DNA from: Octopus sinensis
Lineage: Eukaryota
DNA length: 64,000 nucleotides
NCBI RefSeq assembly: GCF_006345805.1
Contig: NC_042998.1
Span: 143,344,001-143,408,000, forward strand
Direction: 5' to 3'
Positions within the stretch are counted from its first letter, which is position 1, and every line of letters begins with the position of its first letter. Below are positions 4,008 to 58,980 of this stretch, in pieces. The notes beneath the pieces are model-generated. The model had not been told where the DNA came from. It was given only the letters and a program-made list of their open reading frames with translations, and made no database searches. The position numbers and the translations under genes were made by a program.

Positions 4008-4680
4008 ATTCCTTTATTAATCACAAAGGTTTACATTAAGAAAAACATTATGGACAGTACAAGACAAAAGCAAAGACTGTTTGTGTGTGTGCGTGTGTGA
4101 GTGGGTGTTGTGAGGGTTTTGCGTGTAAACAAAACGAAAAAAATTAAAAGATCAACAATGAGTGATCCTCAATCGGGAGAAGACATTCGAAGGTTCCTCA
4201 TGGAAAAAACCCTTAAAAAAACCCATAGGTACCCTGACTTTTGGGGTAGGTGCCTTTTTTTCTTTCTTTTTTTCCTAATTACAGGCGTATACTCAGGGCA
4301 GGCCTTTTTACCCGTTCCATTCTCGCCACTTTCATTCACCTTTCGGCAAATTGGCTAGAAGACAACACTCCCCTCTCTACCCTTATTTTCCTTTTCAAGT
4401 GAAACTTGAAGAAGTTCATCAGGGATTGGCCAAAGAGAAAAGTGTTTGTCTTCAGCCTCTTCAATCTCGTCCACCATACAACCTCTTTCGCCATGGTCAC
4501 CAGGCATATAAACACAAGCTTCCCTTCTAGGTTCAAGGAAGGTGGCGGGGCGATCTTCACGGTGGATTCAGTTGACAGCCGTAGGTGTTCGTCATAAACC
4601 CACAAGTCAGCAATGCTCGAGCACTGGACGAGTGCATGCAGGACCGCCTCGTCGTCCTGCGCCCATCTCGGACATGCTCT
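4008..4680 (-). mobile_element. 3' fragment of L1/Tx1-like LINE (zf-RVT region + 3' UTR)
   Basis: ORF 4336-4725 RACPRWAQDDEAVLHALVQC...KEVVWWTRLK...FFKFHLKRK matches the ORF2 C-terminus at 47643-48446. Ends AATAAA then (CAT)n. Confidence 0.85.
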
Positions 4681-9192: not shown

Positions 9193-9436
9193 GTACTTGT
9201 ATGTAATATCTTTATGCATATGTGTCAGTATGTTATACATGTGTGTATGTATGTATGTATGTATGTATGTATGTATGTATGTATGTGTGTGTATGTATGT
9301 ATGTATGTATGTATGTATGTATGTATGTATGTATGTATGTATGTATGTATGTATGTATGTACATGTATTAATCCATGCCGTTATGTATTAGAATGTTTAT
9401 ATATAGCTTTCTTGTTTCTCACTCTGTGTCTATCTA

Positions 9437-9479
<43 letters not shown>

Positions 9480-9776
9480 ACAGACATATATATATGGTAC
9501 ATGTTTCTATGTGCGTATGCATGCATGCATGTGTTTATGTGTGCATATATGTGTGTATGTATATAGTATGTAAGTATGCATGCATGTTTGTGTGTGTAAG
9601 TATATATACATGTAGGTATTAATGTATGAGTGTATGTGTGTGTGAATGAGTATGTATATAGGTATATATGTCGATCACTTAACACATTCCGACATGGTCA
9701 GACAATTTGAAGCGCATATCGATATACATACATACGCACGACACATACATACAGTGCATACATGCATATAATCCTT

Positions 9777-9876
9777 NNNNNNNNNNNNNNNNNNNNNNNN
9801 NNNNNNNNNNNNNNNNNNNNNNNNNNNNNNNNNNNNNNNNNNNNNNNNNNNNNNNNNNNNNNNNNNNNNNNNNNNN
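9777..9876. other. Assembly gap (100 N)
   Basis: Run of n characters. Confidence 1.
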
Positions 9877-10400
9877 CCCCTCAACCATGCCCCTCCAACG
9901 TACCATTCTCCGAGCCTTCCGACCCCTCCACCTTGCACATCTTCCCCAACCTGTCCCATCCTTCCTTCAAACGAGCCCACACCCTGCGTGAACTACTGGT
10001 CCACAGTTTCTTCCTTGACCCCCACCTCCCAGCTTGGCTCGTTCCCCTGCTCCTGTCCGTGCTACTGCATTTGCCCCTACCTCTCCAACACCACCATCCT
10101 CATAGGATCATGGTCCCTATCATATCACCGACTCCTTTACCTGCACTTCTAGCAACGTCATTTACTGCATCTCCTGCTCTTTCTGCCTTTCTCTGTACAT
10201 CGGTCAAACGGGACGCCGATTGGATGATCGATTCACAGAACCCCTCCGAGACATTAGACTCGGCAATGACACTCCGGTCTCGTGCCATTTCCGCTCGACC
10301 TGTCATTTATTACAACACCTGTCTGTGTTCGGACAGTCTTTGCACAGGGGCCATCCGGACTCCCGTCTTCGCTGTGAACAGAAATTAATCTCCACACTGC
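9877..10400 (+). mobile_element. Penelope-like element fragment (Cys-rich linker + GIY-YIG endonuclease)
   Basis: Translates as ...YHITDSFTCTSSNVIYCISCSFCLSLYIGQTGRRLDDRFTEPLRDIRLGNDTPVSCHF...RLRCEQKLISTL, the VIY...YIGQT GIY-YIG motif typical of PLEs. Confidence 0.88.
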
Positions 10401-10463
10401 TCGCTCCCCCCGTAGTGGTGGCGACCATTGTCGACAGCGACCGACCGACCGGTCGATCGATGA

Positions 10464-11840
10464 TACCTGGCTGATCCTGCCAGTAGTCATATGCTTGTCT
10501 CAAAACTTAAACCATGCAAGTTCATACCGTAAACGAATGGTGAAACCGCGAATGGTTCAGGAACCGGACCTAATCCTCGGGACCGTATTCCTCACCACAA
10601 GGAGAGTGGATAACTGTGGAAATTCTAGAGTTAATACATGCAACTGAAGCTGCGGTGCAGGCCACACTCGGTCGTCGGGCCGAAAATCAGCGTTCGCCTC
10701 AGCTCGCCGCCAGAGCCCTCCCGCCCGCTCAACCGGACCAGGGCGGCGCACCTGCGCTCGCCCCCGGTCATGACGATGCGGTTGGCCTTCCGCACTGGTC
10801 GCGGCGTAAATATTGGAATAAGACCGACGCGTACGGGCCGTCGCAGCAGCCGCCGCACCCCGCGCGCGGGTCGAGGCGTGCGGCAGTTTCACGCTCTTCG
10901 ATTTTGGTGACTCTGGATAACTGTCGCTCCGCTGGCGTTCGCTTCGATGACCCGGCGGGGAGCTTGCGCAGGAAACCATAGTCAGTTCCGGGGGAAGAGT
11001 ATGGTTGCAAAACAGAAACTGAAAGGAACTGACGGAAGGGCATCACCAGGAGTGGAGCCTGCGGCTTAATTTGACTCAACACGGAAAAACTCACCCAGTC
11101 CGGACAACGGTAGGATAGACAGATCGATAGCTCTTTCTCGATTCGGTGGGTGGTGGTGCATGGCCGTTCTTAGTTGGCGATACGTCTGGTTGATCCGATA
11201 ACAACGTGACTCTGGCCCACTAACTAGCGTGCCGATTAGTGCTTTTCTGGCAGCGCAGCGGCGCCGAAACCGTCGTCGGTAGATCCGTGCACGTCCCGCG
11301 CTTGCCGTTTCCACCGCTTTCCATCACGTCAGGCGCTGCGGCCGCGTCCGGCTGCCGCCCCTCCCGGGGCTATCGCGACGTCGTTGCAGAGTCGGTATCC
11401 GGTCGGCTCGGCTCGGCTCGGCTCGCGCGAGCCCAGCAGCGGTACGCCGTCGCGTCCGTGCCGGTCGGTTGGAGAATGCAGCGCTTCTTAGAGAGACGGC
11501 TGGCAGAAAGCCGCACCAAGCGGAGAGATAGCAGGTCTGTGATGCTCTTAGATGTTCGGGCCCACACGCGCGTCACACTGGAGGTATCAGCGGGCGCATT
11601 TACCCCGGCCGAGTGGGTCGGGAAACCGCTGAACCACCTCCCGTGATAGGGATCGGGGCCTGGAACTAACCCCATGAACGTGAAATTCCCGGTAGGCGCG
11701 AGTCATCAGATTGCGTCGATCACGTCCCTACCCTTTGTACATAACGCCCGTCGCTACTACCGATCGGATGGTCCGGTGAGGTCCTCGGATCTGGCCGACG
11801 AGTCCGCTTGCGCGCGGCGGCGTCCCGCGCCGTTGTCGAC
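10464..11840 (+). pseudogene. 18S rRNA: 18S rRNA pseudogene with a large internal deletion and missing 3' end
   Basis: Starts tacctggctgatcctgccagtagtcatatgcttgtctcaaa. Conserved blocks gacggaagggcatcaccaggagtggagcctgcggcttaatttgactcaacacgg, aggtctgtgatgctcttagatg and ccctttgtacataacgcccgtcgctactaccgat. Substitutions occur in universal positions. The central region and the terminal ...gatcatta are absent. Confidence 0.95.
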
Positions 11841-12241
11841 GTGTTCTCTGATGGCTCTCATAAGCCGCGGCCGGGTCCCCTCGCCTTCATCTCATTCGCC
11901 CCTCTAACAGTGCAGTGCAGCGCCGCGCAGCTGTCCGCTCCGATGCCACGCCTGCTCGCTGCCGATCCTGCACGCCCCATCGAGCAGGCGCCCGTCCGAC
12001 AACCAGTGTGCTCGGCCGATGATACAGCGCGCTTTGCGGCTCCACGAGCATTTCATTTTTTCTCAGTTTCCCTTTCTTCTTCTCCCGCATCCACCGGCCT
12101 TCGCGACTAGCGGCAGCAGTCGCGAGCTGTTCTTCTGCTACCGCAGCTAGGTTTTCGTTTCGTTTCGCTTTTTTTCCCTTCGCGGACGACGCGCCGCGTC
12201 CCTTTCCGTATGTCATCGTCAGTAGTAGTAGTAAATATAGA
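11841..12241 (+). other. ITS1-like spacer remnant
   Basis: GC-rich sequence between the 18S helix-44 remnant and the 5.8S. Confidence 0.7.
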
Positions 12242-12400
12242 AACCCTGGATGGGGATCACTTGGCTCGTCTGTAGATGAAGAGCGCGGCTAACCGCGTGA
12301 ACTGATGCGAATTGCAGGACTCACTGAATATCGACACCTCGAATATACATTGCGGCCCCGGGATCCCATCGTCCCGGGGTTTCCATCTGGTTGAGAGGCG
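12242..12400 (+). pseudogene. 5.8S rRNA: 5.8S rRNA (degenerate copy)
   Basis: aaccctggatggggatcacttggctcgtctgtagatgaagagcgcggcta...gaattgcaggac...cattgcggcc matches the 5.8S consensus. ITS2-like GC-rich sequence follows to about 12595. Confidence 0.92.
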
Positions 12401-12595
12401 GTCACGACACAAAAACGCCGTCCGCCGATGCCGTCGTCGCCGTTAGCAGGCGGCGGGATGTCGTTAGTTGCAGGAAAGGGCGAGCCGGAGAAGCGTGGAC
12501 GGAACCTCTTCTTTCGTCCTCCTTCTTCTCGCCCGACTAACGCGCGCCGCTCGATCCTCCATTTTCCGCCACGTCAGACCGTCATCGTTGCGCAG

Positions 12596-12740
12596 CAGAA
12601 GGGCAGAAAGAGCAGATGCAGTAAATGATGTTGCTAGAAGTGCAGGTAAAGGAGTCAGTGATATGATAGGGACGATGATGAGTGCCTGTGAGCATGGTAG
12701 TGTTGGAGAGTTAGGGGAGGTGCAGTAGCGTGAGCATGTG
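12596..12740 (-). mobile_element. Inverted PLE GIY-YIG fragment
   Basis: Reverse complement (ccctatcatatcactgactcctttacctgcacttctagcaacatcatttactgcatc) matches about 10052-10195. Confidence 0.88.
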
Positions 12741-12761
12741 CGTGTGTATATATATATATAT

Positions 12762-12843
<82 letters not shown>

Positions 12844-13139
12844 AGTATATAGGTATATAAATAGATATTGAGAGATAGAAAGATAGATGGACAGACAGAT
12901 GTGAAGAGAAAGGCTTAATGGAAAACTGAAAAAAAAAATGAAATATGTCAAGAAATAAGACAGAAGATTGGTGGTGGTGGTGGGAAAATGAAGGAAAGGA
13001 ATAATGAATGGTTAAATGAAGAAAGGAGATAAAAAAAGAAAACTGGAAAGCTCTAAAAACGAAATCATGAAAGAATACTTAATGAAAGAAATTTAAAAGA
13101 AAGAAGCAAGAGAAGTAATAAATCCCAAAGGATTGAGAG

Positions 13140-13640
13140 CATGAGCTTGAAGTTGACAGAAAGACGCAAGCATGGCTGTATAGTCTAGGAGTTCGCTTTG
13201 CAAAGACGTTGTTTTGGTTTCAATTCCACTGCCCAGCTTTTTACGCATATATGTTCTACTATAGCGCCAGGTCGACCAATATCTTGTGAAAGAATTCGGT
13301 AGATGGAAACTGCATGGAATCTCATTGCGTATATACATACATTTAAACATACATATATGTATGAGCATGTATATATATATGTATATATGTATGTATGTGT
13401 TTGTGTGTGTGAGTGTGTGTGTATGTGTGTGTATGTGTTTGTGTGTGTGCGTGTGTGTGTCTGTGTTTCTTCCCATCTTCCCCACTGCTTGACAACTAGT
13501 ATTAGTTGGTTTACATCCCAGAAACTTAGCGGTTCTGTAAAAGTGACAGAAAAAAAAGTACTAGGATAGATCTGCCAAACGAAAACTCTCCATGGTATGT
13601 CCTAGACTAATGACTGAAACAAACCAAAGATAAAAGAGAG
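13140..13640 (+). mobile_element. Degenerate SINE with internal (TA/TG)n microsatellite
   Basis: tRNA-like head (ggtttcaattccactg), segment ...ggtagatggaaactg, and tail aacttagcggttc...atgactgaaacaa shared with 31365-31760. Confidence 0.6.
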
Positions 13641-18873: not shown

Positions 18874-18947
<74 letters not shown>

Positions 18948-20130
18948 TTAACTCATGCCACCCAAAACACATCAAAATAAACATACCTTTCAATTTGGCA
19001 AAAAGAATTTGCACAATTGTGTCTGATAGAACAACTCGGGACCTTCGTCTTCAAGACCTCAAAACAACGCTTATTGAAAGACAATATCCACCCTCACTTA
19101 TCGACGAGGGAATTAAACGTACCAAACAATTGGACATAAAAACACTAAGAACAACAAAACATAACACCACACCTCAACTCAAAACATTACTATTTATATC
19201 AACACACAACCCCAGAAACAGTGAGGCATTCAACACTATTGTGCAAACTCTTCCTTTACTAACCGGAGATCCAAAAATGAACGACTTCCTGAAAACACAC
19301 AACTCATCAAATGCAAAAAACAAGATAAATCGTTAAAGAGACTACTAACAAATGCGAAGCTTTACAAAACAACCACGAAACCAACGGTTGAAAAACGTGG
19401 ACGCCCAAACTGTGGAACCTGCCCCAACCTACTTGAAGGCTCGGATTTCCTTTTCAAACAAGGACAGAGGTTCACAATTAAAACTAGTTTCACTTGTGCC
19501 TCTGAGAACCTAATTCATGTAATAACCTGCTCGGGTTGCGGACACAACTATATTGGACAAACGAGTATGACCTTGAGAAAGAGAACCACTCTACACAAAG
19601 AGCAAATCCTTTTTCCGTAATACAGGCAAATTCCCCTCAGTGAACATATAGAAAAATGTACAGATAACATCAAACCAAATTTCACAGTCTTCCCTTTCCA
19701 CCAGTGCAAAGACACAATCTCTCCACAAGAACGTTTAAATAAAGAAACTTTTTCATTGAAAAATACAGAACACGTCTTAATATGCACGCATAACCAACTT
19801 TTATCTTTTTTACATATTTCAATTCACGATTACATCACAAAACTTGTCTTTGTCTGTACATATGTATTCCCCTCCCATTACCGAAAGCTGAACAGTTATC
19901 TCCCTTACCCATAACAATAACAATAATAACGATAACCAATTACCTCTCATTATTTATCTACTTGTGAAGTCATTCACTCGTGAATTTCATCACACACAAC
20001 ATGGACAAAATTTCTTCTTAAGAAAAAATACATATTCAAATAAGTAAAACATAATATCAGGAATAGCGATAGGGAAACCGGTCGATATATTAAAAATTTT
20101 ATTAAAACTATGTAAGTGTGCGTATTTTCC
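18948..20130 (+). mobile_element. 5'-truncated Penelope-like element (RT thumb, Cys linker, GIY-YIG, 3' region)
   Basis: NSCHPKHIKINIPFNLAKRICTIVS...GRPNCGTCPNL...FTCASENLIHVITCSGCGHNYIGQT. Frameshift and stops present. Related to 26500-30180 and flanked by (TA)n. Confidence 0.92.
20053..20091 (+). ncRNA. Degenerate minimal hammerhead remnant in PLE 3' region
   Basis: atatc-AGGAATA-gcgatagg-GAAA-CCGG-TC-gatat. Perfect stem I and palindromic stem III, but mutated core and stem II. Confidence 0.45.
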
Positions 20131-20141
20131 TTTTTTAATTT

Positions 20142-24448
<4,307 letters not shown>

Positions 24449-24939
24449 AAAGATAACTAAAAAAATGTATGATAGATTGCAGTCAAATCATTCTCTCTTA
24501 CCTGTTTGTGTCTGCCTTCCAAATGCTGTTTTTACTGAGATCTCCCTTTTTAGTAGAAGAAATAGCTATAACCCTTTGACTGCTATTTCTAAATTCGGTA
24601 TGTGGTAAGGCAACTCGTTGCTAACCCTTATTGCTTAGTATTACTTAAATTTTCCTCGAATGAGGCTTTTACATGCCGAAGACTACTTGGTGTAATGATA
24701 ATTTTTCCAAATTAATTAATTTCACCCTTCATTATACGGATAACCATATTTTATCTCAGTAGATGACCACAGCATCTTGTTTTGGCTACACGCGGGTGGG
24801 AAGGGGCTGTTGACACAATCGTTCATTCACAAATTGAATTCGGTGATACCAGTTGCGGATTCTAGCTCGCTCTGATACTGAGTTGAGTTGGTGCCTTCTG
24901 GTATCTCAAAATTCAATATATAATCATTTATGATTATAG

Positions 24940-25049
24940 TATTCTACGCTGAAGAGAAAAGAAGTTTCGGTAAGATAGAATTATTTATATTTAATATTTA
25001 ATTCTTATGCTTTCTAAAAACTTGATTTCGAAACGTACGTCCGTGGATA
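24940..25049 (+). ncRNA. Type I hammerhead ribozyme
   Basis: tattctacg-CTGAAGA-gaaaagaagttt...aaacttgatttc-GAAA-CGTACG-TC^cgtggata. Canonical core and GUC cleavage triplet, predicted cut after 25041. Confidence 0.87.
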
Positions 25050-25537
25050 ACTAAAAAAATGTATGATAGATTGCAGTCAATTCATTCTCTCTTACCTGTT
25101 TGTGTCTGCCTTCCAAATGCTGTTTTTACTGAGATCTCCCTTTTTAGTAGAAGAAATAGCTATAACCCTTTGACTGCTATTTCTAAATTCGGTATGTGGT
25201 AAGGCAACTCGTTGCTAAACCCTTATTGCTTAGTATTACTTAAATTTTCCTCGAATGAGGCTTTTACATGCCGAAGACTACTTGGTGTAATTGATAACTT
25301 TTCTAAATTAATTAATTTCACCCTTCATTATTACGGATAACCATATTTTATCTCAGTAGATGACCACAGCATCTTGTTTTGGCTACACGCGGGTGGGAAG
25401 GGGCTGTTGACACAATCGTTTCATTCACAAATTGAATTCGGTGATACCAGTTGCGGATTCTAGCTCGCTCTGATACTGAGTTGAGTTGGTGCCTTCTGGT
25501 ATCTCAAAATTCAATATATAATCATTTATGATTATAG

Positions 25538-25653
25538 TATTCTACGCTGAAGAGAAAAGAAGTTTCGGTAAGTAAGATAGAATTATTTAATATTTAATAT
25601 TTAATTCTTATGCTTTCCTAAAAACTTGATTTCGAAACGTACGTCCGTGGATA
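25538..25653 (+). ncRNA. Type I hammerhead ribozyme
   Basis: Same motif, predicted cut after 25645. Confidence 0.87.
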
Positions 25654-26140
25654 ACTAAAAAAATGTATGATAGATTGCAGTCAATTCATTCTCTCTTACC
25701 TGTTTGTGTCTGCCTTCCAAATGCTGTTTTTACTGAGATCTCCCTTTTTAGTAGAATAAATAGCTATAACTCTTTGACTGCTATTTCTAAATTCGGTATG
25801 TGGTAAGCAACTCGTTGCTAAACCCTTATTGCTTAGTATTACTTAAATTTTCCTCGAATGAGGCTTTTACATGCCGAAGACTACTTGGTGTAATTGATAA
25901 TTTTTCCAAATTAATTAATTTCACCCTTCATTATTACGGATAACCATATTTTATCTCAGTAGATGACTACAGCATCTTGTTTTGGCTACACGCGGGTGGG
26001 AAGGGGCTGTTGACACAATCGTTTCATTCACAAATTGAATTCGGTGATACCAGTTGCGGATTCTAGCTCGCTCTGATACTGAGTTGAGTTGGTGCCTTCT
26101 GGTATCTCAAAATTCAATATATAATCATTTATGATTATAG

Positions 26141-26252
26141 TATTCTACGCTGAAGAGAAAAGAAGTTTCGGTAAGATAGAATTATTTAATATTTAATATT
26201 TAATTCTTATGCTTTCCTAAAAACTTGATTTCGAAACGTACGTCCGTGGATA
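26141..26252 (+). ncRNA. Type I hammerhead ribozyme
   Basis: Same motif, predicted cut after 26244. Confidence 0.87.
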
Positions 26253-26436
26253 ACTAAAAAAATGTATGATAGATTGCAGTCAATTCATTCTCTCTTACCT
26301 GTTTGTGTCTGCCTTCCAAATGCTGTTTTTACTGAGATCTCCCTTTTTAGTAGAAGAAATAGCTATAACCCTTTGACTGCTATTTCTAAATTCGGTATGT
26401 GGTAAGGCAACTCGTTGCTAAACCCTTATTGCTTAG

Positions 26437-39170: not shown

Positions 39171-39810
39171 GGAAATTCGGATCTTTACCTTTTGACTGAC
39201 AGATTTAAAAAATAATTTTTTGTAACTAAACACTTTCAAACTTCGGACACTGGTAGAATGTGTCATATAAAACATATTTTACTCTTAGCATTTTTGAGAA
39301 AAAACTTGTATTTACGAAGTAACTTCACATTAAAGTAGTCCTATTTCGGTAATTTCAACCAATGATGTGTATTCAGCTGAATAAAATTACTGCCGTTGTT
39401 TGTCAACAACAACTATCGGCGGTTTATTTTTCATTTGTCACTGTTATTTATGACATCGTTCGTGCATTTGTACTGGTTTTAGCTTGAAGGTTTTAGGGTT
39501 AGGGTTTTAAGGTTAAGGTTGGGGTTTTAGGGTTAGGGTTAGGGTTTCAGGGTAAGGGTTAGGGTTGTCATAAATAACAGTGACAAACGAAAAATACACC
39601 GCCGGAAGTTCTTGCTGACAAACAACGGCAGACATTTTATTCAGCTGAATACATGTCATTGAATGGTTGAAATTACCGAAATAGGACAACGTTAACGTGA
39701 AATTACTTCGTAAATATAAGTTTTTCTAAAAAATGCTAAGAGTAAAAAATGTTTTATATGACACATTCTACCAGTGTCCCAAAAGGTAAAGATCCGGAAA
39801 TTCATTTCCG
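39171..39810. mobile_element. Foldback element with long inverted arms and central degenerate (TTAGGG)n
   Basis: Arm 39178-39455 is the imperfect reverse complement of 39566-39796. The centre (about 39485-39565) is ttagggttaggg-like. Confidence 0.85.
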
Positions 39811-40835: not shown

Positions 40836-43110
40836 TATGATGACGATAATGATGATGATGGCTGTCCATTAGCAACCAAGCAAGATCATCACTGACCATT
40901 TAGAACGTAGTGTACTCAGGTAAAATTATACTTGAGTATAATTTTGTGTAAAATTATACTTTACTATAACTCCGGGTCGATAAATGTCTTGAAAGTGAAT
41001 TTAGCAGACGGAAACTGTGTGGAAGCCCGTCGATTCCGTGTGTGTATACGTATATGTGTATATGTTTTTGCATTTATTACCAACACTGCTTGACAATCAG
41101 TGTTGCTTTGTTTACATCCCTAACTTAGCAGTTTGTAAACAAGAACTGATAGAATAAGTATCAGACTTACAACCGCTACCCACCCACCAAACAAAAAAAA
41201 AATCACTGAAGTCGATTTTTTTCGACTAAAAAAAAAAAAGAAACTTCAATGTGTTACCCCACTATGGCCGCAATCCATTGACTGAAACAAGGAAAAGATA
41301 AAAGAAAGATCAAAAGTTATAAAACAGAAGTGATTTTTATGACACAAATTTCTCTTAACGAAATATATTCCCTCTACTTGATATTGTTTGGTAAAAGAAA
41401 ATTAAAAATTAAAAATACGAGCCACTCGATTGGCTAGAAATAGTGACCAAATCTCCTTGAACAAATAGTAAGGATCCAGTTACTTGACTCCTTTATCACT
41501 TTTTCTTTCTTTTTTATTTTAGACATTTATAAGAATGACGATAACTAATGAATAAGTGACATAATGGGAATTTAAGAGTATTACGCTTGCCTTTAGTTTC
41601 GTAAATGAATAATTTCAATGATGTTCTTGTTTCTGCAAAAAGACTTTAAAACAAACAAAGGCAATATTAGTTAAAAGAAATGAAGGAAATATTGTCCACG
41701 TATAGCTAGGGGTTTTTGTAGTTAATGATCAAATGCTGCCAGACTCCTACATGTAATTTAGAGTAAATCAAAGTACTTTATATTGTGGGACCGCAAAGCC
41801 ATGTGAAAACCATTTTTACGAAAGTGAAAATAGTACATTATGTTCTGAAATCGTTGAAATACGTCTAACAGAATTTACAAAAGACTAACTGTAGCCGTGA
41901 AAATTTCACGATTATTTTGAAATGTTGGTTGCAATAGGCGGTAAGGAGGCAGAATTGTTAGCAAGTCGGACAAAATGCTTAGCGGCATAACCACTAAGAG
42001 CTTCGCTCTTCATTCTTTCAGAGCCGAAAAAACAAAGTACCAGTCAAGTACTGGGTTCGATATAATCGACTTGTTCTTCTCAAATTTGCTGGTATTGGAC
42101 TCTGCAGCGGACTGGCGCCCGTTCAACGGGGATGTTGTGATCTTAATCAATAATGCGCCATGGTAACCTCGGTAACTGGGCTTATTAGTCCTGGGGATCC
42201 AGAAAGAGAGAGAGAGAGAAACAGACAGACAGATAGAGAGAAAGAGACATAGAGAGAAAGAGACAGAGAGAGAAAGAGAGACAGAGAGAGAGACTGTTGG
42301 AAATTTACAGGAAACCATGAAATAACTTTTCTTGCAAAATTGTATAATATTTGCTTCTGAGATATTTAATGTTTGGGATGGCATAAAAGTCCACTTTGGT
42401 AGTATTGTGTATGCTGTTGTGGGAACATCTTTCCAAGATATGCATACATATCGTATACACGCATATCGTATGTATGTATGTATGTATGTATGTATGTATG
42501 TATGTATGTATGTATGTATGTATGTATGTATGTTATTATTCAGTTTTATTTCAAGATTTCTTGGCAATAGAGAAAGAGCCGGTTTCTAACCTTGATCCAA
42601 GGCTCATTCATTGGAATTTCAACACCAACAGGCTAATTTTGTATCTATGTTTTCTGTATGTATGTATGTATGTATGTATGTATGTATGTATGTATGTATG
42701 TATGTATGTATGTATGTATGCATGCATGCATGCATACGTGGAGATTTACATGTTTTGTTTTATGTATGTATTCTTATGCATATAGTTGCATATCTAGACA
42801 TGCTAATATTACTTAAATCATAAAATTCTGGAAAGTTTTATAGACTTTTACAGTTCTAGCGATAGCTTGGAACTGTAGTCTTTGAATCAGCCTTCTCCTT
42901 CCTGGTTTTGAGAAGCCTAATTTCTCAAGGTTAGTATTTAGGCAGGGTATTACATATCCCTATGCCCCAATAATTACGAGCATAAACCTGAACTTGCAAT
43001 CTGTATGTATGTATGTATTATGTATGTATGTATGTATGTATGTATGTATGTATGTATGTATGTATGTGTGTGCGTGCATTTATGTGTGTATATCTATCTA
43101 TCTATCTATC

Positions 43111-44962
43111 TAAAACTGCTATCCCTGCTAAAGACATCGCCACCAATAACAATACCAACATCACCATCACCGCCACCAAAAACCGTGCCGTCAATGCTAC
43201 TAATACCACTAACACCACCGCCGTCACCAAGAACGACAATAACAACAACAACAACAACAACAACAACGAAAACAACAATTCCCTTCAACCATTGCTCACT
43301 CCATCACCAACAAGTGAAAAAATAACAACGACAACCAAACGAAATGCCGAAATTTGCGCTAATGCAGGACCAAATTACGCAGACAATTTTCCACCCCTTG
43401 CTAGTTGCATAATCAGCAACCACAAACCTACAACCCACACCCCTGCCATCAACACCAACACCACCGGCAGTAACAACAATAACAAAACAACAACAAACTT
43501 CGCCGAGGCGATAAAAGAAAAAGTATCGTTTACTGCACAACAAATAAAAGATTGCAGAAACCTTATCACCAATGAAAACGGCAAAATACTCTTACACATA
43601 CCACAACACATACTGAATGAGGAAAAAAAGAAAACCATTGTTTATAAAATAACAAATAAAACAACTAAAAGTCCAGAAAAGGCAAGCACGGACAAAATAG
43701 AATCTGGGGATACAAGGATTATGTGACTTGGGCGAACTTGTTCGCCCACGTACAGGTGGTTTTTCAGAATGAAGAGTTGGCGAAGAAATTCTCAACGATA
43801 ACCCTTCATTCTGATGAACTAACGATGACACCGAGTTACCTTGGCCAGAAGGTGACGAAGGTCATTATCAATAATGTCCCCCAAGTAACAACCACACTAT
43901 GGATAACATCCGCCATAACATCCGAAATGGAGGACTTAAACATTCTCGATATCGCTGTTTCGAAAAACAAGGACTAGCTGGGAAAGAGAATGGAGTTCCT
44001 CTTCCACATAAGTCAAGACGACATTAACAAAATTCCCACCCACGTACATCTTGCGGATGGCCGCAAGTTGTACGTAGTAGTCGAGGGCAGAAGGCCACGA
44101 TGCTATACATGTGGCAGTGAGGCACACCTCAAAAAGGAGTGCAAATCTGCCGCTAAATTACAACAACAACAGCCACAGGAAAAACCACAAAAGCCAGCAT
44201 TATTGCCCACACCACAATATGGACGGCTAATCAAGAAGCTGTATGCAGAAATGCATGAAAAACAACAAAGAACAAGCCAACCCAACCAAACAACACTAAC
44301 ACCAGCGCCAAGAACAGAATCATCACCACCAACAACAACTAAATCAATTCCGACACCGAGAATAACAACGAAGAAGACAAGCACCAAGGATGTAGGAGAG
44401 ACAATAACCACAACAAACCCCCAGCAACCCCCCCCGCGCACCACAACATATCTACAACCGCACAACAGACCCAGACGCTTTACCCTTACCCCCTGCTGAT
44501 TCGTCAGACTTTTCATCTAACGATGAAAGTTCGACAGAATGGCAAATAGCCACAGGGGGTAAAAGAAAAAGATAAAAAAAAAACAAACAAGAAATCGCAA
44601 CCAAAGCAGGGAAATACCTGAACCCTGAAAACTCCATACACAACCAAACAAGCACCAACACTACAAAAACACACTCAATGCTATCAGCGATAGACACCAA
44701 AGACTCCAAATTAATGGAGTACATCACAGGCCACACAAACATTTGTGAAGATGACTTTAAAAATAGCAATCATCCACGCACTACACCACCCAAACACATC
44801 AGAATACTACACATCACACAAACACAACACCACAAACTCAAAGCCCTCTTCCCAAATGCTGTAGGGGGTATCCAAAAATATCTCTCCCAAAAACTTTATA
44901 AAAACCTCCTCGAAGACACATCAAAGAACGAGGAAGCAAAAACTTTCGACACAAGTAAGTAA
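43111..44962 (+). pseudogene. LINE ORF1 (gag-like CCHC zinc knuckle), disrupted
   Basis: VVVEGRRPRCYTCGSEAHLKKEC. Stops at about 43726 and 43977, further breaks at about 44500-44580. Confidence 0.8.
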
Positions 44963-45012
44963 CTCTCTGTACTTTCATTTTTGTGTTTTAAAGCACACAC
45001 CCCAATAGAATC

Positions 45013-48000
45013 ATGGTCAAGATTGGTTGTGTGAATGCGCGTGGCTTGGGGTCTCCTTGGAAACAAGGATACCTCCTAAATGACATCAAGTCACATGATT
45101 TGGGAATCATAGCCATAAGTGAGACCAGACTCCACGAGCCACGGGCCCTAAAGTCCATGTTTGGCGGACAGTTTAACATTTATTTTTCTCCCTGTCTGCT
45201 GAGGATGGGCGGTAGTGGCACCGCGGTACTTTTTCACAAGAGCCTGGATCTCGAAGTCAAGACGATATTCGTAGACCCGGAGGGCAGACTGATCGTTCTG
45301 GATGTTGACGGCAGCAATGGGTGCGCTTTTCGACTCGTATCAGTCTACGTACCGCCTTTAACAGGTCAGCCGGATTTCTTTCGACGTCTAGAAGTATTCC
45401 TGGGAACGTCTCGTCCTTTACTTTTAGTTGGGGATTGGAATGCTACCTTGGACACACATCTAGACTATGTGGGGAGAGACAAAAACAGAAGGGGATGCAA
45501 ATGCCTCAGAGACCTGCTCAGACGATTCCAACTGTCTTACAGGTACCGACTCGACCACCCAAATGCACCAACGTGGACATGGAGCAACCGCAGTGGGTCG
45601 TCGAGATCGTATCTAGATAGGATACTGTGTAGGACAGTAGACAAGGATAACTTAGGATGTCCACAATTCCACACAGTCAGCTACACGGATCACAAATTCG
45701 TGACGTGTACGCTAGACTTAGATAAGGCACATAGACAGGGTCCTGGGTACTGGAAACTGAACGCATCATTCCCGTCCAGACAAGTTTTTAGAGACAGAAT
45801 CAATACGTTAGTAAAAAGGGCTTTAACGGGAGCCATTGTCAACAACAAATGGTGGTTCGCCTTCTAGAGAGCAGTAAAAGCGGAAGCAATTAGATATAGC
45901 AAGGCACTAGCCGTAGATAGAAATAGAGTAGAGGGTGAGTTAGTTAAGAAGCTAGAAGAGGCAATAAGAAGTGGCATCACATCCGACGTTTTAGCGGCGA
46001 GGTTGGTCCTTGAACAACACTTCAACGCCAAACACGAAGGGTGTGCTGTCAGGGCTAGGATGCGTGCTCTAAGGATGGAAGGTGTTGGAGCCGCGAGGGA
46101 GGCCCGGGTGGCGGAGGCGCAGCAGGGCAACAAAGCCACCATTCGGTCTCTGGTAGATGAACAGGGGCGCGAATTGCTCGAGCCCAGCAAGATGTGCGAG
46201 ACATTTCAGCGGCACTTTGCCCGACTGTACGGGACGAGTGGTGAGCGTGAACGCAGGGTGGACTTCAGTGCCTACCTGCACAGCCTACCACGACTCTCGG
46301 CAAGAGAGGCAGAGTGCTGCGAAGGTGCCATCACGGCGGCGGATGTGCGGGACGTGATGGCAGAATGCTCGAGAGACAAATCGCCGGGTTTGGATGGTCT
46401 GCCCTACGAGTTTTACAATTGTATGCCAGACTTGTTCGGAGACGTCTTGGTAGCGGTATACTGCAACTGGCAGTAAAACGGGAGCATACCCGGTTTTGTG
46501 AGTCGAGGAGCTGTAACTCTGCTGAAGAAAGATCCAAACAAGGGGAACATTATAGATAACTTTAGACCAATCACTCTGCTCAATGCAGACCTGAAAATTT
46601 TGACAAAGGTGTTAGCCAAGAGGTTGGCGCTTGTCATTGAGAAACTGGTCGACAACGCACAAACGTGTCCCGTGCCGGGCCGGAGCATCCATGACAACCT
46701 CCATCTGATGCGCTACATCATAGACAGGGTAGTTAACGAACCTGGCATGAGTGGGGCCCTGATCAACTTGGATCAATCGAAAGCCTTCGATAGCGTAGAC
46801 CATCGATACTTGGAGGCAGTCCTGAGAGCGGCTGGTTTCGGTCCCGTCTTCCGCGGCTGGATAGCTGCCTTGTACATAGGCATCCGTTCGGTAATTCGCG
46901 TAAATGGACATCTATCGAGACCTTTCGACATTGCACGTTCGGTCCGTCAGGGATGCCCCCTCTCGGCGCTTCTATACGTACTGACTCTTGAGCCACTACT
47001 GCGGAAGCTGGCGACTCTGAGGGGCATCCCGCGAGAATTGGGATGCGGGACGAGCGTGTCTGCATACGCGGACGACGTCACCGTCATAGTGTCAAGCCAC
47101 GAGCACATCGAGCGGGTCGGCGAGACACTGAAAGACTACGAAGCGGTGACAGGAGCAAAAATCAACCGGGAAAAGTCAGTGGGCTTGCGGCTCGGCACCT
47201 GGAGGAGCAAACCCATGCCGTCCACCAGTACCTCCGTCGTGGGACGCTGGACCGACGGCTCGGTTAAGTTGCTCGGGGTCTGGTTCGGTCCGGACCTCCA
47301 AATGGAGAACTGGAATGAGATAACGAGTAGGGTGGTCACTCTCGCCCAGCAATGGGCCGAGAGGAAACTGTCCCTAAAAGGTCGGGCGGAGGTGGCGAAC
47401 GCGTACATCGCGTCCATCATCTACTACCGCCTGATCGTCGTACCTTGTCCCGACCCTACCATCACCAAACTAGAACGCATTCTCTTCAGCTTCTTGTGGA
47501 AAGGATGCGTCCCGATGGTCAGGCGATCCATTTGCTGTCAACACCCGTTAAAAGGAGGGCTGGGCATGCCGTGGTTGATGATGCGCAGACACGCGCTGAG
47601 ACTGCGATATCTCCGGCTCTATGTAGACGCCGGTGAACAGGTGTGGTCGCCGTTTGTGAGGCACGCTTTCCCGCAGCTCGTCTCCATGACCGAACTGCAG
47701 TCGTGGATCAAAAAGAGGCTAGGAAGCGCGAATGGCACCGCGAGTGTCGCGTTGCTCTCAAGCAACTCTGCCGTCCCGGGTCGACCTTGAGTGACTTCAA
47801 CACAACCAAAGCATTCTATAGGGGATTAGTGGAGGAGAGGTACGACGACGATCTTGGGGCAAACCTGGGCGTCGACGAGGAATACCTGACCCGCCTGTTT
47901 CAAACGACTTTCGGCCAGGGACCTATGGATAACATCCAGAGATCCCTGGCCTGGCGGTGCTACCGAGAAGCGCTACCCGTTCGGGATAAGCTCTATAGGC

Positions 48001-48446
48001 ATGGCTCGAGAAACACGGGGCCGACCTGCCCGAGATGCGGGCAGAGCGACGAAACCGCTCTGCACGCAATCGTGCAGTGTCCAGCAATTTCCGACCTGTG
48101 GACTTATGTCGAACGACTGCTGTCACGTGTGGGACGTGTCGGTTTATCAGCTGAGTCTATCGTTAATATCGACACGCCTCCTTCCTTCAAACGGGAAGGA
48201 AGAGCTATTATTATCATACTTGTGGCTATGGTGAAAGAATGTATCTGGTGGACGCGCCTGAAAGGATTAGAGACAAACACTTTCCTCTCTGGTCAATCTC
48301 TCATCAACTTCTTCAAGTATCACCTGAAGAGGAAAATGAGAGTAGAGAGGCAAGTTTTGTCTAGTGAATATTTTAAAAAAAGATGGGTGAATGTAGCAAG
48401 GATGGCACGTATGAATGACGAAGCCACCTTGACTATGATTCTATGA
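45013..48446 (+). pseudogene. LINE ORF2: APE endonuclease, reverse transcriptase, zf-RVT, disrupted
   Basis: NARGL, SETR, GDWN, SYLDR, TDH (APE). KSPGLDG, FRPITLLNAD, LDQSKAFD, RQGCPLS, YADD (RT). CPRC...H...C. Stops at 45865 and 46474, frameshift at about 47720. Confidence 0.95.
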
Positions 48447-53931: not shown

Positions 53932-54387
53932 GTATGTATGTATGTATGTATGTATGTATGTATGTATATGTATATATATGTATATATATATATTCTTTTA
54001 CTTGTTTCAGTCATTTGATTGCGGCCATGCTGGAGCACCGCCTTTAGTCGAACAAATCGACAACAGCACTTATTCTTCTTCAGTCATTTGTCTATATCTT
54101 TATTTACTGTTCTCAATGCACCAATTATTTTAGGTACGACCTTTACTTTACTCGTGCTCCAAATTCTTCCTATTTCAAATTTTAAGAGATTGTATTTTTT
54201 ATTTTTGTTTTTCATCCTCTTTCTTGACGATCCTGGAATCAAATGGGCATAATGGGTCGATTTATAAGCAACTTTGATTTTCCTTATCTATAATTGTTAT
54301 GTCGAGTCTATTTCTTTCTAACTTCTTGTCCGTTTGAATAGGGGTATTATTATGGGCCTATTGATAACTTCCAGAAATTCTTTGCCT

Positions 54388-55090
54388 GGCAGGTCGCTGC
54401 CTGTTCAGGATAAACTTTACAAGCGTGGAAGTGCTGTCAGCCGGGCCTGCCCGAGGTGCGCCCAGAACGATGAAACCGTTCTGCACACTCTAGTCCAGTG
54501 CCCGAGTATTGCTGACCTGTGGGTTTATGTTGAACACCTGCTGTCGCGTATGGACGGATCCGGCTATCAGCTGAATCCATTCTGAGGATTGCTCCGCCAC
54601 CCTCTTTTGGTTGGGAGGGGCAGGTAATTCTTATTTGTCTAGTGTCTGTAGTGAAAGAGGTAGTATGGGGGATCCGTTTGAAAGGACTAAAGACAGACAC
54701 TATCCTCTTTGGCCAAGCCCTCATCAACTTTTACAAGTCTATCTTGAAAAGGAAGTTGAGGGTGGGGAGGAAAGTGTTGCCTTGTAGCAAGTTTGTTGAA
54801 AGGTGGGCGAATGCTGGAAGAATGGCCAATGTGAAAGGACCAATTCTGAACGTGCACCTGTATAAAAAGAAGGGCTGTTGCCCTGTTGTTCAGGCACCCG
54901 TGGCTTTTGTGGGTTTTTCCACGAGGACCTTAAAGTGCCTCCCTTATTGAGAATTTTAATTTGTTTAATTTTTATTATTATATTGTGTACACGAGATAAA
55001 ACCCATTGTATCGTCCTGTTTTGTCTTTAAGATTGTTGTATGTCTTTTAATATTATTTTATGTGATCTCTTATGGCCAATAAAAGAATGG
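54388..55090 (+). mobile_element. 3' fragment of L1/Tx1-like LINE with (ATT)n tail
   Basis: LPVQDKLYKRGSAVSRACPRCAQNDETVLH...KEVVWGIRLKGLKTD, ending aataaaagaatgg(att)n. Confidence 0.85.
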
Positions 55091-55177: not shown

Positions 55178-56738
55178 TAGTATATTTTTTATAGCGTGCT
55201 TTCACTTCACTACCGAGCGCAGCTCTGTGTGCGTTGGGTATGTGCTGTGATTTGTTGTGATGCTCTGATGGTTACTGTATTGAAAGTGTTCTGCGTAGGA
55301 TGTGTGCAGTGCCTAGTAGTGCAATTTTCTGTATGTTATATGTGTTTGTAAGTCCTGGTGTTTTTGTTATGTATTTGTCTGAATATTTTTTTATCATGCC
55401 TAATGCATCTACTATGATAGGAATTGTTTCTGTTTTTAGATTCCACATTCTGGTTACCTCTATTTCCAGGTCTTTGTATTTTGAAAGTTTCTCCATTTCT
55501 TTTAGAGACACGTTGTCATCTGCCGGTATTGATACATCAATTAGAAAGCATTTTTTTTCTTCATGATCTCTGACAACTATATCTGGTCTGTTGGCCTTAA
55601 TTTCTCTATCTGTGTGTATTGGCATATCCCAGAGTATGGTTGCTTTCTCGTTTTCTGTGACCTTTTCTGGTGTGTACCTATACAATCTTTTTTCTGTTGT
55701 TATTTCATAATGTTGGCATAGCTTCCAGTGTATATAGGTCCCAACTCTGTCGTGTCTGTGAATATATTCCTTCTTAGCCAGGACTGGGCAGCCAGAGATA
55801 ATATGATTTATTGTTTCTTGTCCATCTCCATATATTCTGCAGTTACTTGTTATATTTCTTTTCATTACATGTTTTTGGTAATTTCTGGTGGGGAGGCTTT
55901 GGTTTTGTGCTGCAATTAAAAATCCCTCTGTCTCTGCTTTGAGTCCTGAGCTTCTCAACCATTGCTGGGATTTTTCTTTGTCTATTTCTTTTGCATTTAG
56001 TTTAGTCCAGTATTTACCATGAAGGGGCTTTTTTGCCATCGTTTTATCAAGGTTCCTTGCTGTTCTATTTTTAGTTTGGATTTCATTTGTTTTATAGCTT
56101 TTGTTGTTTCTTCATCTTCTTCTTCTTCATATTTGTTATGTGGTATGATTTCTTGTTTGTATTTGTCAGCTTCCTTAAATACTGAGAACAGTTTTTTGTT
56201 TTGCTCGTGTTTTGCCGCTATTTGTATCAGTTTTCCTTCCTTCTGAAGTAGATATTTTTGCAGTCCTATGGTGGTTATTTTATAGTAGTTTTCCAGCTGT
56301 ATAAGGCCTCTACCACCTTCTATACGTTGTATATATAGCCTTTCCATGTCAGATTTTGGGTGATGCATCCTAGATCCTGTCATTATTTTTCTTGTTTTCC
56401 TATCTCTTTTGGTCAGTTCATTTAGTGTCCAGTGAAGGATATTGTAGCTGTAACTTATAACTGGGACAGCTAAAGTGTGAATACCTATTATCTTGTTTTT
56501 AGCATTGAGCTCTGTTTTCAGTATTGATCTAACTCGTCTATAATAATATTTTTTTATTTTCTCTTTCATTTGTGCGTGTTGTGTCTTATCTAGTTCATGG
56601 ATTCCTAAGTATTTGTAAGTTTGGCTTTGGTCGAATTCTTTTATTTCATTGGTTTTATCTAGTGTGATGTTGCTATTCTTAACTAGTTTTTCTCTTTTCA
56701 TGGTTACTTTGGCGCATTTCTCAAATTCAAATTTCATA
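55175..56738 (-). mobile_element. 5'-truncated R4/Dong-like RLE retrotransposon in (TAA)n
   Basis: MKFEFEKCA...YKYLGI...GGRGL, then CRIYGDGQETINHIISGC and RPDIVV...LIDVSIP...KEMEKLSKY. One frameshift at about 56020. (ATT)n on both sides. Confidence 0.92.
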
Positions 56739-56740
56739 TC

Positions 56741-56812
<72 letters not shown>

Positions 56813-56813
<1 letters not shown>

Positions 56814-57264
56814 GAGTGAGAGAGCAGTGCATGCCATCAAAGTGACACTGGGGTAAAATATACGAAGCCCAATATACCCTTCATGACTACCCGTCTGATA
56901 AGGGTACACCAGGCACATGCATCACAACCATATGTGCGCGACATGGTGATCTCATATCAAGATAAACAGCACATGACCTTGCAGGTGGGGCCCAGTTAGA
57001 AATTTCTTCAGGTTGAGTAGCCCCTTCCCGCTCAAAAGGTCCCTGAATAAGGGTTGTTTAAGGATGTTGAAAGAACCACCCATGTTTCCTGAGGTGAATT
57101 ATTCAAACCCCAAAGAATTTCTCTCAACACATGGCTATGATGCTCCCCCACTACTTCTGCTCGTGATCAGAGATGCACATATCGGCAGCCACTAAGGGAC
57201 ATGCTCAACTGGTTAAGGTCAAACAACTGACAAGCAAATCTGTGGTACTGAGCAGAATATTTGC

Positions 57265-57265
<1 letters not shown>
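56813..57265. mobile_element. About 450-bp non-coding element in (ATT)n, copy 1
   Basis: gagtgagagagcagtgcatgcc...ctgagcagaatatttgct, same boundaries as copy 2. Confidence 0.8.
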
Positions 57266-57345
<80 letters not shown>

Positions 57346-57407
57346 CACCATCCTCCTCCTCCTCCTTCTCCCCTCCTCCTTCACCCCCTCCCCTACCCCT
57401 CCTCCTC

Positions 57408-57443
<36 letters not shown>

Positions 57444-57461
57444 TATTATTATTATTATTAT

Positions 57462-57914
57462 TGAGTGAGAGAGCAGTGCATGCCATCAAAGTGACACTGG
57501 GGTAAAATATACGAAGCTCAATATACCCACCATGACTACTCGTCTGATAAGGGTACACTAGGCCCATGCATCACAACCATAAGTGCGCGACATGGTGATC
57601 TCATATCGAGATAAGCAGCACATGACCTTGCAGGTGGGGCCCAATTAGAATTTTATTCTGGTCGAGTAACCCATCCCGCTCAAAAGCTCCCTGAATAAGG
57701 GTTATTTAAGGATATTGAACGGAACACCCATGTTTCCAGAGGTGAATTATTCAAACCCCAAAGAATTTCTCTCAACACACGGCTATGATGCTCTCCCACT
57801 ACTTCTGCTCGTGACCAGAGATGCATATATCGTCAGCCACTAAGGGACATGCTCAACTTGTTACGGTCAAACAACTGACAAGCAAATCTGTGGTACTGAG
57901 CAGAATATTTGCTT
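57462..57914. mobile_element. About 450-bp non-coding element in (ATT)n, copy 2
   Basis: Diverged direct copy of 56813-57265. Confidence 0.8.
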
Positions 57915-57915
57915 A

Positions 57916-57949
<34 letters not shown>

Positions 57950-58236
57950 TTTTTTTTTCTTCTTTCAAATTTGCTTCCATTTCTTGCCGAGTGTCTTCCC
58001 GACTCCTAGGGCAAAGAAACTCATAGTATACATTGGTAGGACATTAAACCAAACTCAGTAGTTCGTTAATTTTTTTTTTTTTTTAAGTTAAATTAAAATA
58101 CATGAGCAGCAACAGTTCTCACATCGACAATGCTCTTCTCATTTTACTGTCTGTGAGTCTGTTATTATTATTGTTATTATTATTATTATTATTGCTATTA
58201 TTATTATTATTGCTGTTATTATTATTATTGTTGTTG

Positions 58237-58309: not shown

Positions 58310-58980
58310 AGCACGGATGTGCTGTCCTAGGTGCACGCAGGGTGACGAAACTGTTCTGTATGCACTCGTTCAGCGTCCTGACATTGATGACTTGTGGAGT
58401 TATCTCGAATAGCTCTCGGCCGAGTCTATAGCGATGATTGCCCCGTCGCGAGGATGGAGAAGCAGTTTTCCTTTGTCTGGTGGCTGTGGCGAAAGAGGTT
58501 GTCTGGTGGACGAGGCTGAAAGGAATGAGGACAGAGACATTCCTCTTTGATAAAGCTTTCTTCGACTTTTCCAAGTTTCACTTGAAAAGGAAGGTGTGGG
58601 TGGAGAGGGAGGTGCTGTCCTCGAGTGAATTTATCAAACGTTGGGTGAAAGTTGCAAAAATAGCAAGAGCGGATGGTACTACTCTAGGTGTAGACCTGTG
58701 AGTTGGAGGAAATGAGTTGGAGAGGGCACTTGTCTTTCGTATTCAGGGAGATCTTGGACGCTGGAGTTTCTCGATTATCCCTAGACGTCCTCCTGTATCA
58801 GGAGGACCCCATCACTATCAATTTTTTACTGTCGTATACTATATATACTTTCCATCTTTAATGTATACCGTGTATATTTTACTTTTTTATATCATTCCAT
58901 TTTCTGTAAACCACCCCCACTTTATGTCTGTCTTTGTACTGTCCCCCTCATCTTTTATTTTTGGTAAATAAAAGAAATCG
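58310..58980 (+). mobile_element. 3' fragment of L1/Tx1-like LINE in (ATT)n
   Basis: FLCLVAVAKEVVWWTRLKGMRTETFL...FHLKRKVWVEREVLSS, ending aataaaagaaatcg(tta)n. Confidence 0.85.

Follow-up and report, generated by a model that had tools for sequence, protein, structure and literature searches.

The 64-kb stretch of Octopus sinensis DNA analysed here (NC_042998.1, positions 143,344,001 to 143,408,000; hereafter the window, with coordinates numbered from its first base) is microsatellite-rich and retroelement-rich. Towards its left end lies a fragment of the ribosomal DNA (rDNA) repeat, comprising 18S, 5.8S and spacer-like sequence, that is held between two oppositely oriented pieces of a Penelope-like element (PLE), here called the left and right arms (Table 1). 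We tentatively read this locus, with a probability of about 0.45, as one old and now dead complex insertion, pieced together once during repair of a break at a site occupied by a PLE and a (TA)n tract. The locus has no function: it can yield neither an 18S rRNA nor a PLE protein.

The rDNA gave a match to the Rfam eukaryotic small subunit (SSU) model at 10464-11897 (395 bits, E 4.8e-116) and one to the 5.8S model at 12242-12400; these were the only two gathering-level Rfam matches in the 64 kb, and there was none to the large subunit (LSU). A first-pass annotation of the sequence had described the rDNA as a pre-rRNA fragment. The order of external transcribed spacer (ETS)-like sequence, 18S, 5.8S and internal transcribed spacers (ITS) bears this out, but the fragment is discontinuous, as ~780 nt of the 18S and its 3' end are deleted. 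At 10926/10927 the 18S passes directly from about position 268 to about position 1048 as numbered in L020, an intact reference that we take to be plant-type from its features. No remnant of the lost ~780 nt was detected (48 of 200 shuffles scored equally), nor any of the last ~65-75 nt of the 18S (105 of 500 shuffles). There are indeed ~55-64 nt of ETS-like sequence upstream of the 18S; 10409-10463 is presumed to be the 5' ETS end, an identity assigned purely from its position before SSU model position 1.

What is left of the 18S is decayed. Conserved helices carry small deletions, including one of 5 nt, and between model positions 1124 and 1666 a count by eye gave 41 non-standard-pair marks in the window 18S against 8 in L020. 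Decay is about 5% at most, an upper bound, as lineage change in cephalopods adds to the broken-pair count. Mismatches at panel-invariant columns numbered 14 (plus 2 gaps) of 89 in one block and 32 of 148 in another, the other blocks offering 0 and 2 usable columns; this figure (16-22%) was rejected as an age measure because it mixes cephalopod lineage change with decay. A MAFFT fragment-adding alignment was discarded because it misplaced three of the four 18S segments. A functional rDNA variant was rejected on the grounds of the ~780-nt deletion, the missing 18S 3' end, the helix deletion and the lack of LSU sequence. The rDNA is a dead patchwork, and none of the 54 panel loci had a match in the window outside 10400-12450.

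With gaps allowed, a published cephalopod primer for V2 finds a site at 10800 (4 edits) and one other in the window, and none in 38 non-cephalopod 18S sequences; together with the octopus homolog of the left frame described below, this fits a probable octopus host. An ungapped search allowing up to 3 mismatches found no match for either published cephalopod primer, and the site of the published reverse primer has no match in the locus 18S, so that full-length PCR would not be expected to recover this copy. With the middle and 3' end of the 18S and the reverse-primer match all absent, the suggestion that the locus explains divergent 18S copies is not supported (18S alignments that may bear on the decay estimate accompany PMC8074623). 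Cephalopod-type 18S had no match in GTDB. A fallback 18S pattern retrieved at least 54 eukaryotic 18S loci there, none of them close among the matches listed, the best long blocks being 72-83% identical. As an aside, at least 54 prokaryotic genome records in GTDB are contaminated with contigs that bear eukaryotic 18S rDNA.

By tblastn, 9918-10408 of the left arm lines up collinearly with PLE homologs, its three frames together running from the linker between reverse transcriptase (RT) and endonuclease (EN) to the end of the GIY-YIG domain; no homolog matched to the left of its gap-side start. The best homolog of the left frame, ranked first among 11 matches from 75 candidates, is a PLE piece in the Octopus bimaculoides gene model P0002 (73% identity, E 4.5e-21). 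Pfam matched none of five frames from the window itself, so the PLE identity of the left arm is drawn from its homologs. In the library, 2504 proteins matched at E<=0.001; all four top homologs tested carry Pfam GIY-YIG at E<=3e-4, two of them just under the curated cutoff, and the full-length homolog P0106 carries both RVT_1 and GIY-YIG. A zinc-finger-like CX2-5CxxC motif of the linker, at about 10048-10074, aligns with the homologs upstream of GIY-YIG. Of the endonuclease CCHH motif, the CxxC and the HF histidine are present, but the homologs' EH histidine reads Pro in the window, which is consistent with decay. The arms appear to stem from an EN+ PLE whose linker carries a zinc finger, of the Neptune/Nematis type by the definition in PMC8557442 rather than by a tree. 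In P0002, which encodes C-type lectin and immunoglobulin (Ig) domains, residues ~82-181 come from a decayed copy of the same PLE family and are probably a gene-model artefact or an exonised relic.

Among 81 C-terminal tails taken from 166 homologs, 47 end 23 residues past a conserved Glu, 72 have Gly at +8 and 77 have Thr at +9. The tail of the left arm reads ISTL and then LAP, which puts the arm's end at 10399 or about 10408-10410 and, set against the homologs, 10-15 codons short of the usual stop. The first-pass annotation had seen a plus-strand GIY-YIG frame running into ETS-like sequence and the 18S start, and a stop-to-stop frame at 10106-10474 does span all three; the frame is real but is a frameshifted relic that lacks the usual end of the open reading frame (ORF). 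No pseudo-long terminal repeat (pLTR) follows the left arm, and neither arm contains a hammerhead core, the single bare core-like match lying inside ITS1. No listed homolog aligns past query residue 103/105, a weak test for other chimeras as the query extends only 7 residues beyond ISTL.

Comparison of the window with itself, masked and unmasked (the unmasked BLAST being dominated by microsatellites), aligned 12729-12597 in inverted orientation to 10061-10192, with 118/137 identities, 9 gap columns, 86% identity and E 1.5e-39; neither comparison found a third copy of the arm sequence. The switch from ITS2 directly into an inverted, diverged copy of the GIY-YIG region was thus correctly described, as were the (TA)n tract after it and the gap beside the left arm, although the copy amounts to only 133 bp, reaching from the linker zinc finger to the middle of GIY-YIG. 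A repeat search of 9400-13400 returned only microsatellite families, short chance pairs and the arm pair, and microRNA matches at 12720-12800, which scored far under the gathering level, were rejected as artefacts of the TA repeat. The arms differ at 10 of 128 aligned sites (7.8%, confidence interval (CI) 3.8-13.9%) and by 3 indels. Pieces of this family make up about 1% of the window, and the two of them sit exactly at the two rDNA ends. Between the 5' end of the right arm and the TRF-defined TA tract there are 10-18 nt; 1240 of 61704 window positions (about 2%) are that near a TA tract under a slightly stricter definition. Both arms read Tyr at the first Cys of the linker CxxC, a residue that is Cys in 47 of 52 homologs and that P0002 also implies to be Cys. 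This shared derived Cys-to-Tyr codon suggests, modestly, a common source copy for the two arms.

The ITS2 bases beside the right arm resemble the continuation of the PLE at 7/10 and 9/14 positions, with a one-base offset, and only 2 and 1, respectively, of 505 ITS positions matched equally well. The same ITS2 end could pair with sense PLE RNA at 10/12 positions including G-U pairs (null 0/527). For a decayed PLE tail, 5 mismatches in 14 have a probability of 0.003-0.04. The similarity thus exceeds the ITS background and is too poor for plain decay of PLE sequence, which makes a homology-guided junction the likelier reading; end-joining, RT priming and RT switching would all predict such homology. 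The last ~14 nt before 12597 may accordingly be read either as imperfect junction homology or as a more decayed PLE tail.

Table 1. Features of the PLE-rDNA insertion and its borders in the window
Feature	Position	Strand	Remarks
Assembly gap, 100 N	9777..9876	.	Covers the left boundary, along with whatever RT-coding sequence or target duplication may exist
Left arm, decayed 3' part of EN+ PLE ORF	9877..10408	+	tblastn collinearity with homologs; RT-EN linker, CX2-5CxxC finger, GIY-YIG; frameshifted, 3'-truncated, without pLTR
GC-rich spacer, presumed 5' ETS end	10409..10463	+	~55 nt (up to 64 nt), GC 0.64
18S pseudogene, 5' piece	10464..10926	+	Model 1 to ~262; long V2 expansion
18S pseudogene, 3' piece	10927..11830	+	Reference ~1048 to ~1735; ~300-nt V7 expansion
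ITS1-like spacer, possibly including rest of V9	11831..12241	+	Between 18S and 5.8S matches
5' boundary of ITS1-like spacer (second deletion junction)	about 11800-11900		
5.8S pseudogene, full model length	12242..12400	+	Rfam RF00002, 87 bits, model 1-154
ITS2-like spacer	12401..12596	+	~190 nt; last ~14 nt resemble PLE continuation
Right arm, inverted 133-bp piece of left-arm PLE	12597..12729	-	Equivalent to 10061-10192; 3' end on rDNA, 5' end towards TA tract; may reach about 12737
(TA)n tract beside outer end of right arm	12747..12868	.	TRF

Both arms point at the rDNA, so that they lie tail-to-tail with their 3' ends inward on the cargo. Inversions described for PLEs instead have a 5'-truncated copy turned around at the 5' end, usually in a head-to-head arrangement (PMC3846280, PMC8557442), and a canonical PLE inversion, to which the first-pass annotation had appealed, was rejected for that reason and because a pLTR/hammerhead end is lacking. 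On a template that spans the pLTR-ORF junction, reverse transcription by a PLE RT begins about 111-118 nt inside the ORF, with cut AT-rich DNA as the primer (PMC11167929). Since the normal start lies near the pLTR and ORF start and both arm 3' ends here meet rDNA without a pLTR, the locus is not a standard PLE insertion. The other PLE-type insertions in the window, a head-to-head tandem array and two copies of a second PLE family described below, serve as an internal control, and these have their 3' ends on (TA)n. A PLE-bounded mobile composite, also proposed at first, is likewise unsupported, as neither arm has the pLTR/hammerhead end that bounds the cargo known from Adineta.

That the pieces belong together, and probably through one event, is favoured by the positions of the two family members at the rDNA ends, by the shared Tyr codon and by the imperfect homology at the right junction. 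We infer that joining took place at the level of DNA, in the following order. A break in or at a fresh Neptune/Nematis-type PLE copy within a (TA)n tract would have removed its last codons and pLTR. Repair would then have filled the break with one collinear stretch of rDNA, from the ETS end to ITS2, two internal stretches being skipped during repair or lost afterwards. On about 10-14 nt of imperfect homology the repair may have switched to the same PLE copy or its cDNA in reverse, copying about 133 bp before rejoining at the TA tract. The ages of the arms and the rDNA are roughly compatible, at about 4% per PLE arm and about 5% 18S decay at most. At breaks in yeast, rDNA and retrotransposon cDNA are taken up, frequently in sets of 2-4 joined fragments, and microhomology switching yields inverted pieces of the same locus (PMC11372161, PMC11724301); human dispersed rDNA pseudogenes form without reverse transcription (PMC5381670).

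Several points weigh against break repair. No feature of the locus shows that the template was DNA and not RNA. All of the rDNA piece falls within the transcribed region; it starts only 55-64 nt before the 18S, as a processed pre-rRNA end might, and has the same sense as the left arm. Collinear skips are how reverse transcriptases behave on structured RNA. The shared Tyr is a single transition, a like change recurs independently in P0002, and there is a small chance that the codon is shared by coincidence or as a subfamily variant. The left boundary of the insert falls in the assembly gap. Finally, fold-back inversions in yeast span 5-34 bp and inserts are mostly <500 bp, far smaller than those seen here (PMC11372161, PMC11724301).

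It is possible, though unlikely, that a PLE RT copied pre-rRNA and/or used internal sites of its own RNA to extend a linear rDNA-derived molecule at its two 3' ends. If it copied, which is itself rather unlikely, it would have run along pre-rRNA from ITS2 to the ETS, skipping twice, and then switched to PLE RNA near the ORF end to give the left arm; for the right arm, either an antisense PLE template would have been read first in the run or the second strand would have been extended on PLE RNA. The shared polarity of left arm and rRNA, the collinear deletions and the junction homology fit such a course, as does a wholly transcribed segment that ends 55-64 nt before the 18S and about 180-196 nt after 5.8S, distances that presumably resemble those of yeast pre-rRNA cut sites. 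No intergenic spacer (IGS) is visible beside the rDNA, the gap concealing its left side. Antisense templates have been proposed for PLEs (PMC3846280), but a single run primed at (TA)n needs an antisense PLE RNA ending mid-ORF, and in vitro initiation is at the pLTR-ORF position given above (PMC11167929). At least four switches would moreover be required. Known chimeric retrogenes made by template switching (U6/L1 type) have the cellular RNA 5' of an intact element 3' end, in the same polarity and with a target duplication; the locus shows the reverse order, element and then rRNA, without an intact element 3' end, and so departs from this form. We know of no standard intermediate that runs from the ETS to ITS2, which also counts against copying. 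An RT could alternatively have extended both 3'-OH ends of linear rDNA or rRNA-derived cDNA on PLE RNA at internal sites, in the manner of telomerase and independently of the endonuclease, the capped piece then being joined into the TA tract. This is quite unlikely, although the geometry follows from it directly, with the arms' 3' ends against the cargo, their 5' ends facing outward and no pLTR, and although it agrees with the pairing of the ITS2 end with sense PLE RNA just past the arm. An anole PLE protein, modelled as a dimer, extends both strands in vitro (PMC11167929), and EN-minus PLEs attach to telomeric overhangs (PMC8557442). Capping nevertheless asks for non-canonical priming twice on the same molecule, the PLE texts examined do not describe priming inside the EN-coding region, and end-joining predicts the same homology.

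The pieces might also have come together through independent events, with two PLE copies inserted oppositely in a TA-rich spot or in a larger rDNA orphon (a dispersed rDNA pseudogene), and deletions or a repair event later taking away their 3' ends and the remaining rDNA. The 7.8% difference and 3 indels between the arms would allow this, and a convergent pair from a second PLE family, 69% identical, flanks another insert in the window; however, the inner junctions of that pair retain 3' ends and TA tracts, which those of the arms here do not, no rDNA lies outside the arms and the Tyr codon is common to both, so that we regard such a history as improbable. A chimera of assembly or library beside the gap is very improbable. 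The 100-N gap does touch the left arm, and rDNA, microsatellites and inverted repeats of PLEs assemble badly (PMC8557442), but all four junctions of the insert (about 10405, 10926, 11800-11900 and 12597) lie within one contig, the conserved-helix deletions and excess of broken pairs are unlike collapsed functional rDNA, and arms that differ are not one read folded back. Least probable of all is a non-autonomous composite of PLE and rDNA that was mobilised and exists in several copies. PLEs are able to carry host sequence along in trans (PMC3846280) and the gap could conceal a pLTR; against this, neither visible arm has a pLTR or hammerhead, the orientation is wrong and the window holds no second copy. 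Searching proteins with the reading frame that crosses the first 18S deletion gave no hit among 167 candidates, a weak and uninformative test.

The locus appears to work like a complex break insertion and belongs to the class of rDNA orphons. It shares with human orphons (PMC5381670) a degraded rDNA away from any visible rDNA array, with deletions and substitutions, amid repeats; its neighbours are microsatellites and retroelement relics, and there is no other rDNA in the 64 kb. It differs from them in that both ends adjoin one PLE family. For the human orphons the presence of IGS excluded reverse transcription, an argument that does not apply here with no IGS or 28S visible. Insertions at yeast breaks (PMC11372161, PMC11724301) likewise show joined rDNA and retrotransposon pieces, an inverted piece of the same locus and junction homology; they are experimental and mostly <500 bp, whereas the octopus insert is about 2.9 kb and old, and its mechanism is inferred. 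With PLEs of the Neptune/Nematis type (PMC8557442) the arms have in common a C-terminal GIY-YIG with internal CxxC, the CX2-5CxxC linker and the (TA)n neighbour, differing in being decayed fragments with no visible RT, pLTR or hammerhead and in including a tail-to-tail inverted piece. The Adineta vaga arrangement in which a nonribosomal peptide synthetase gene lies between two pLTRs (pLTR-NRPS-pLTR; PMC3846280) also has foreign sequence between PLE-derived ends, one inverted, but there pLTRs form the ends, 8 bp of target are duplicated and an allelic site is empty, and the ends here are ORF fragments without pLTR.

Transposons physically linked to 45S rDNA sequence are also known in R2, Pokey, the spike-moss PLE-X in 28S and the rRNA-derived short interspersed element SINE28 (PMC8557442, PMC10946416). 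R2, Pokey and PLE-X occupy a fixed site with rDNA on both sides, and SINE28 consists of multicopy short elements; here the rDNA itself is the insert, the junctions lie in spacers and there is one copy in the window. An rDNA-targeting PLE of the R2 or PLE-X type was rejected because no rDNA lies outside the arms. A 2024 review of links between rDNA and transposable elements (PMC10946416) lists SINE28 and Pokey, and a term search returned no occurrence of 'penelope' in it; a tail-to-tail case has been described for a different transposon (PMC9977147). In a literature search that left most subscription papers outside, we found neither a PLE-bounded 18S-5.8S fragment nor a natural record of a PLE RT acting on foreign ends and rRNA.

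As it stands, a single decayed repeat locus is of little importance. It provides a clean cephalopod example of an rDNA orphon, and such copies can be mis-annotated as 18S. If inward-facing pairs of 3'-truncated PLEs around foreign DNA were to recur genome-wide, they would be in vivo evidence that PLE RTs patch or cap broken ends, and would indicate that these enzymes, the closest relatives of telomerase, can copy pre-rRNA, a question that the PLE papers examined leave unanswered. Were the capping or copying reading true, the locus would be a natural record of a PLE RT acting on foreign ends and rRNA.

Elsewhere in the window, a tandem array at 20289-26436 consists of ~598-bp units of 98-99% identity; their orientation flips head-to-head at about 24450, and (TA)n borders the array on either side. 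Hammerhead-like motifs occur on the minus strand in the 7 left units and on the plus strand in the 3 right units; the motif is type I hammerhead-like, its stem III being palindromic and its stem II, at ~75 nt, unusually long. Its fold shows stems I and II, with stability no greater than that of shuffles (z -0.77, 49/200), and the unit has no Rfam match. Judged from the motifs, the array looks like a young non-LTR retrozyme or non-autonomous PLE (a retrozyme preprint bears on this array only), and it may be more interesting than the PLE-rDNA insert itself. Copies of the second PLE family, at 26497-~30180 (minus strand) and 18947-20143 (plus strand), converge on it; one is near full length (RT and GIY-YIG, frameshifted) and the other 5'-truncated. 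Each has a TA tract at its end, and hammerhead-like stem III motifs occur at 26674 and 20074.

The window also contains a near-complete ORF2 of a non-LTR retrotransposon at 44992-48446 (plus strand), with apurinic (AP) endonuclease and RT and a few stops, preceded by ORF1-like frames at 42992-44962; 3' fragments lie at about 4319-4677, 54354-54826 and 58323-58665. The 3' part of another non-LTR RT element, with a zf-RVT match, occupies 55272-56836 (minus strand) beside (ATT)n tracts, and a ~550-bp local duplication lies near it at 56763-57956. An inverted repeat at 39242-39782, of ~215 bp and 89% identical, surrounds degenerate TTAGGG-like repeats at 39493-39566.

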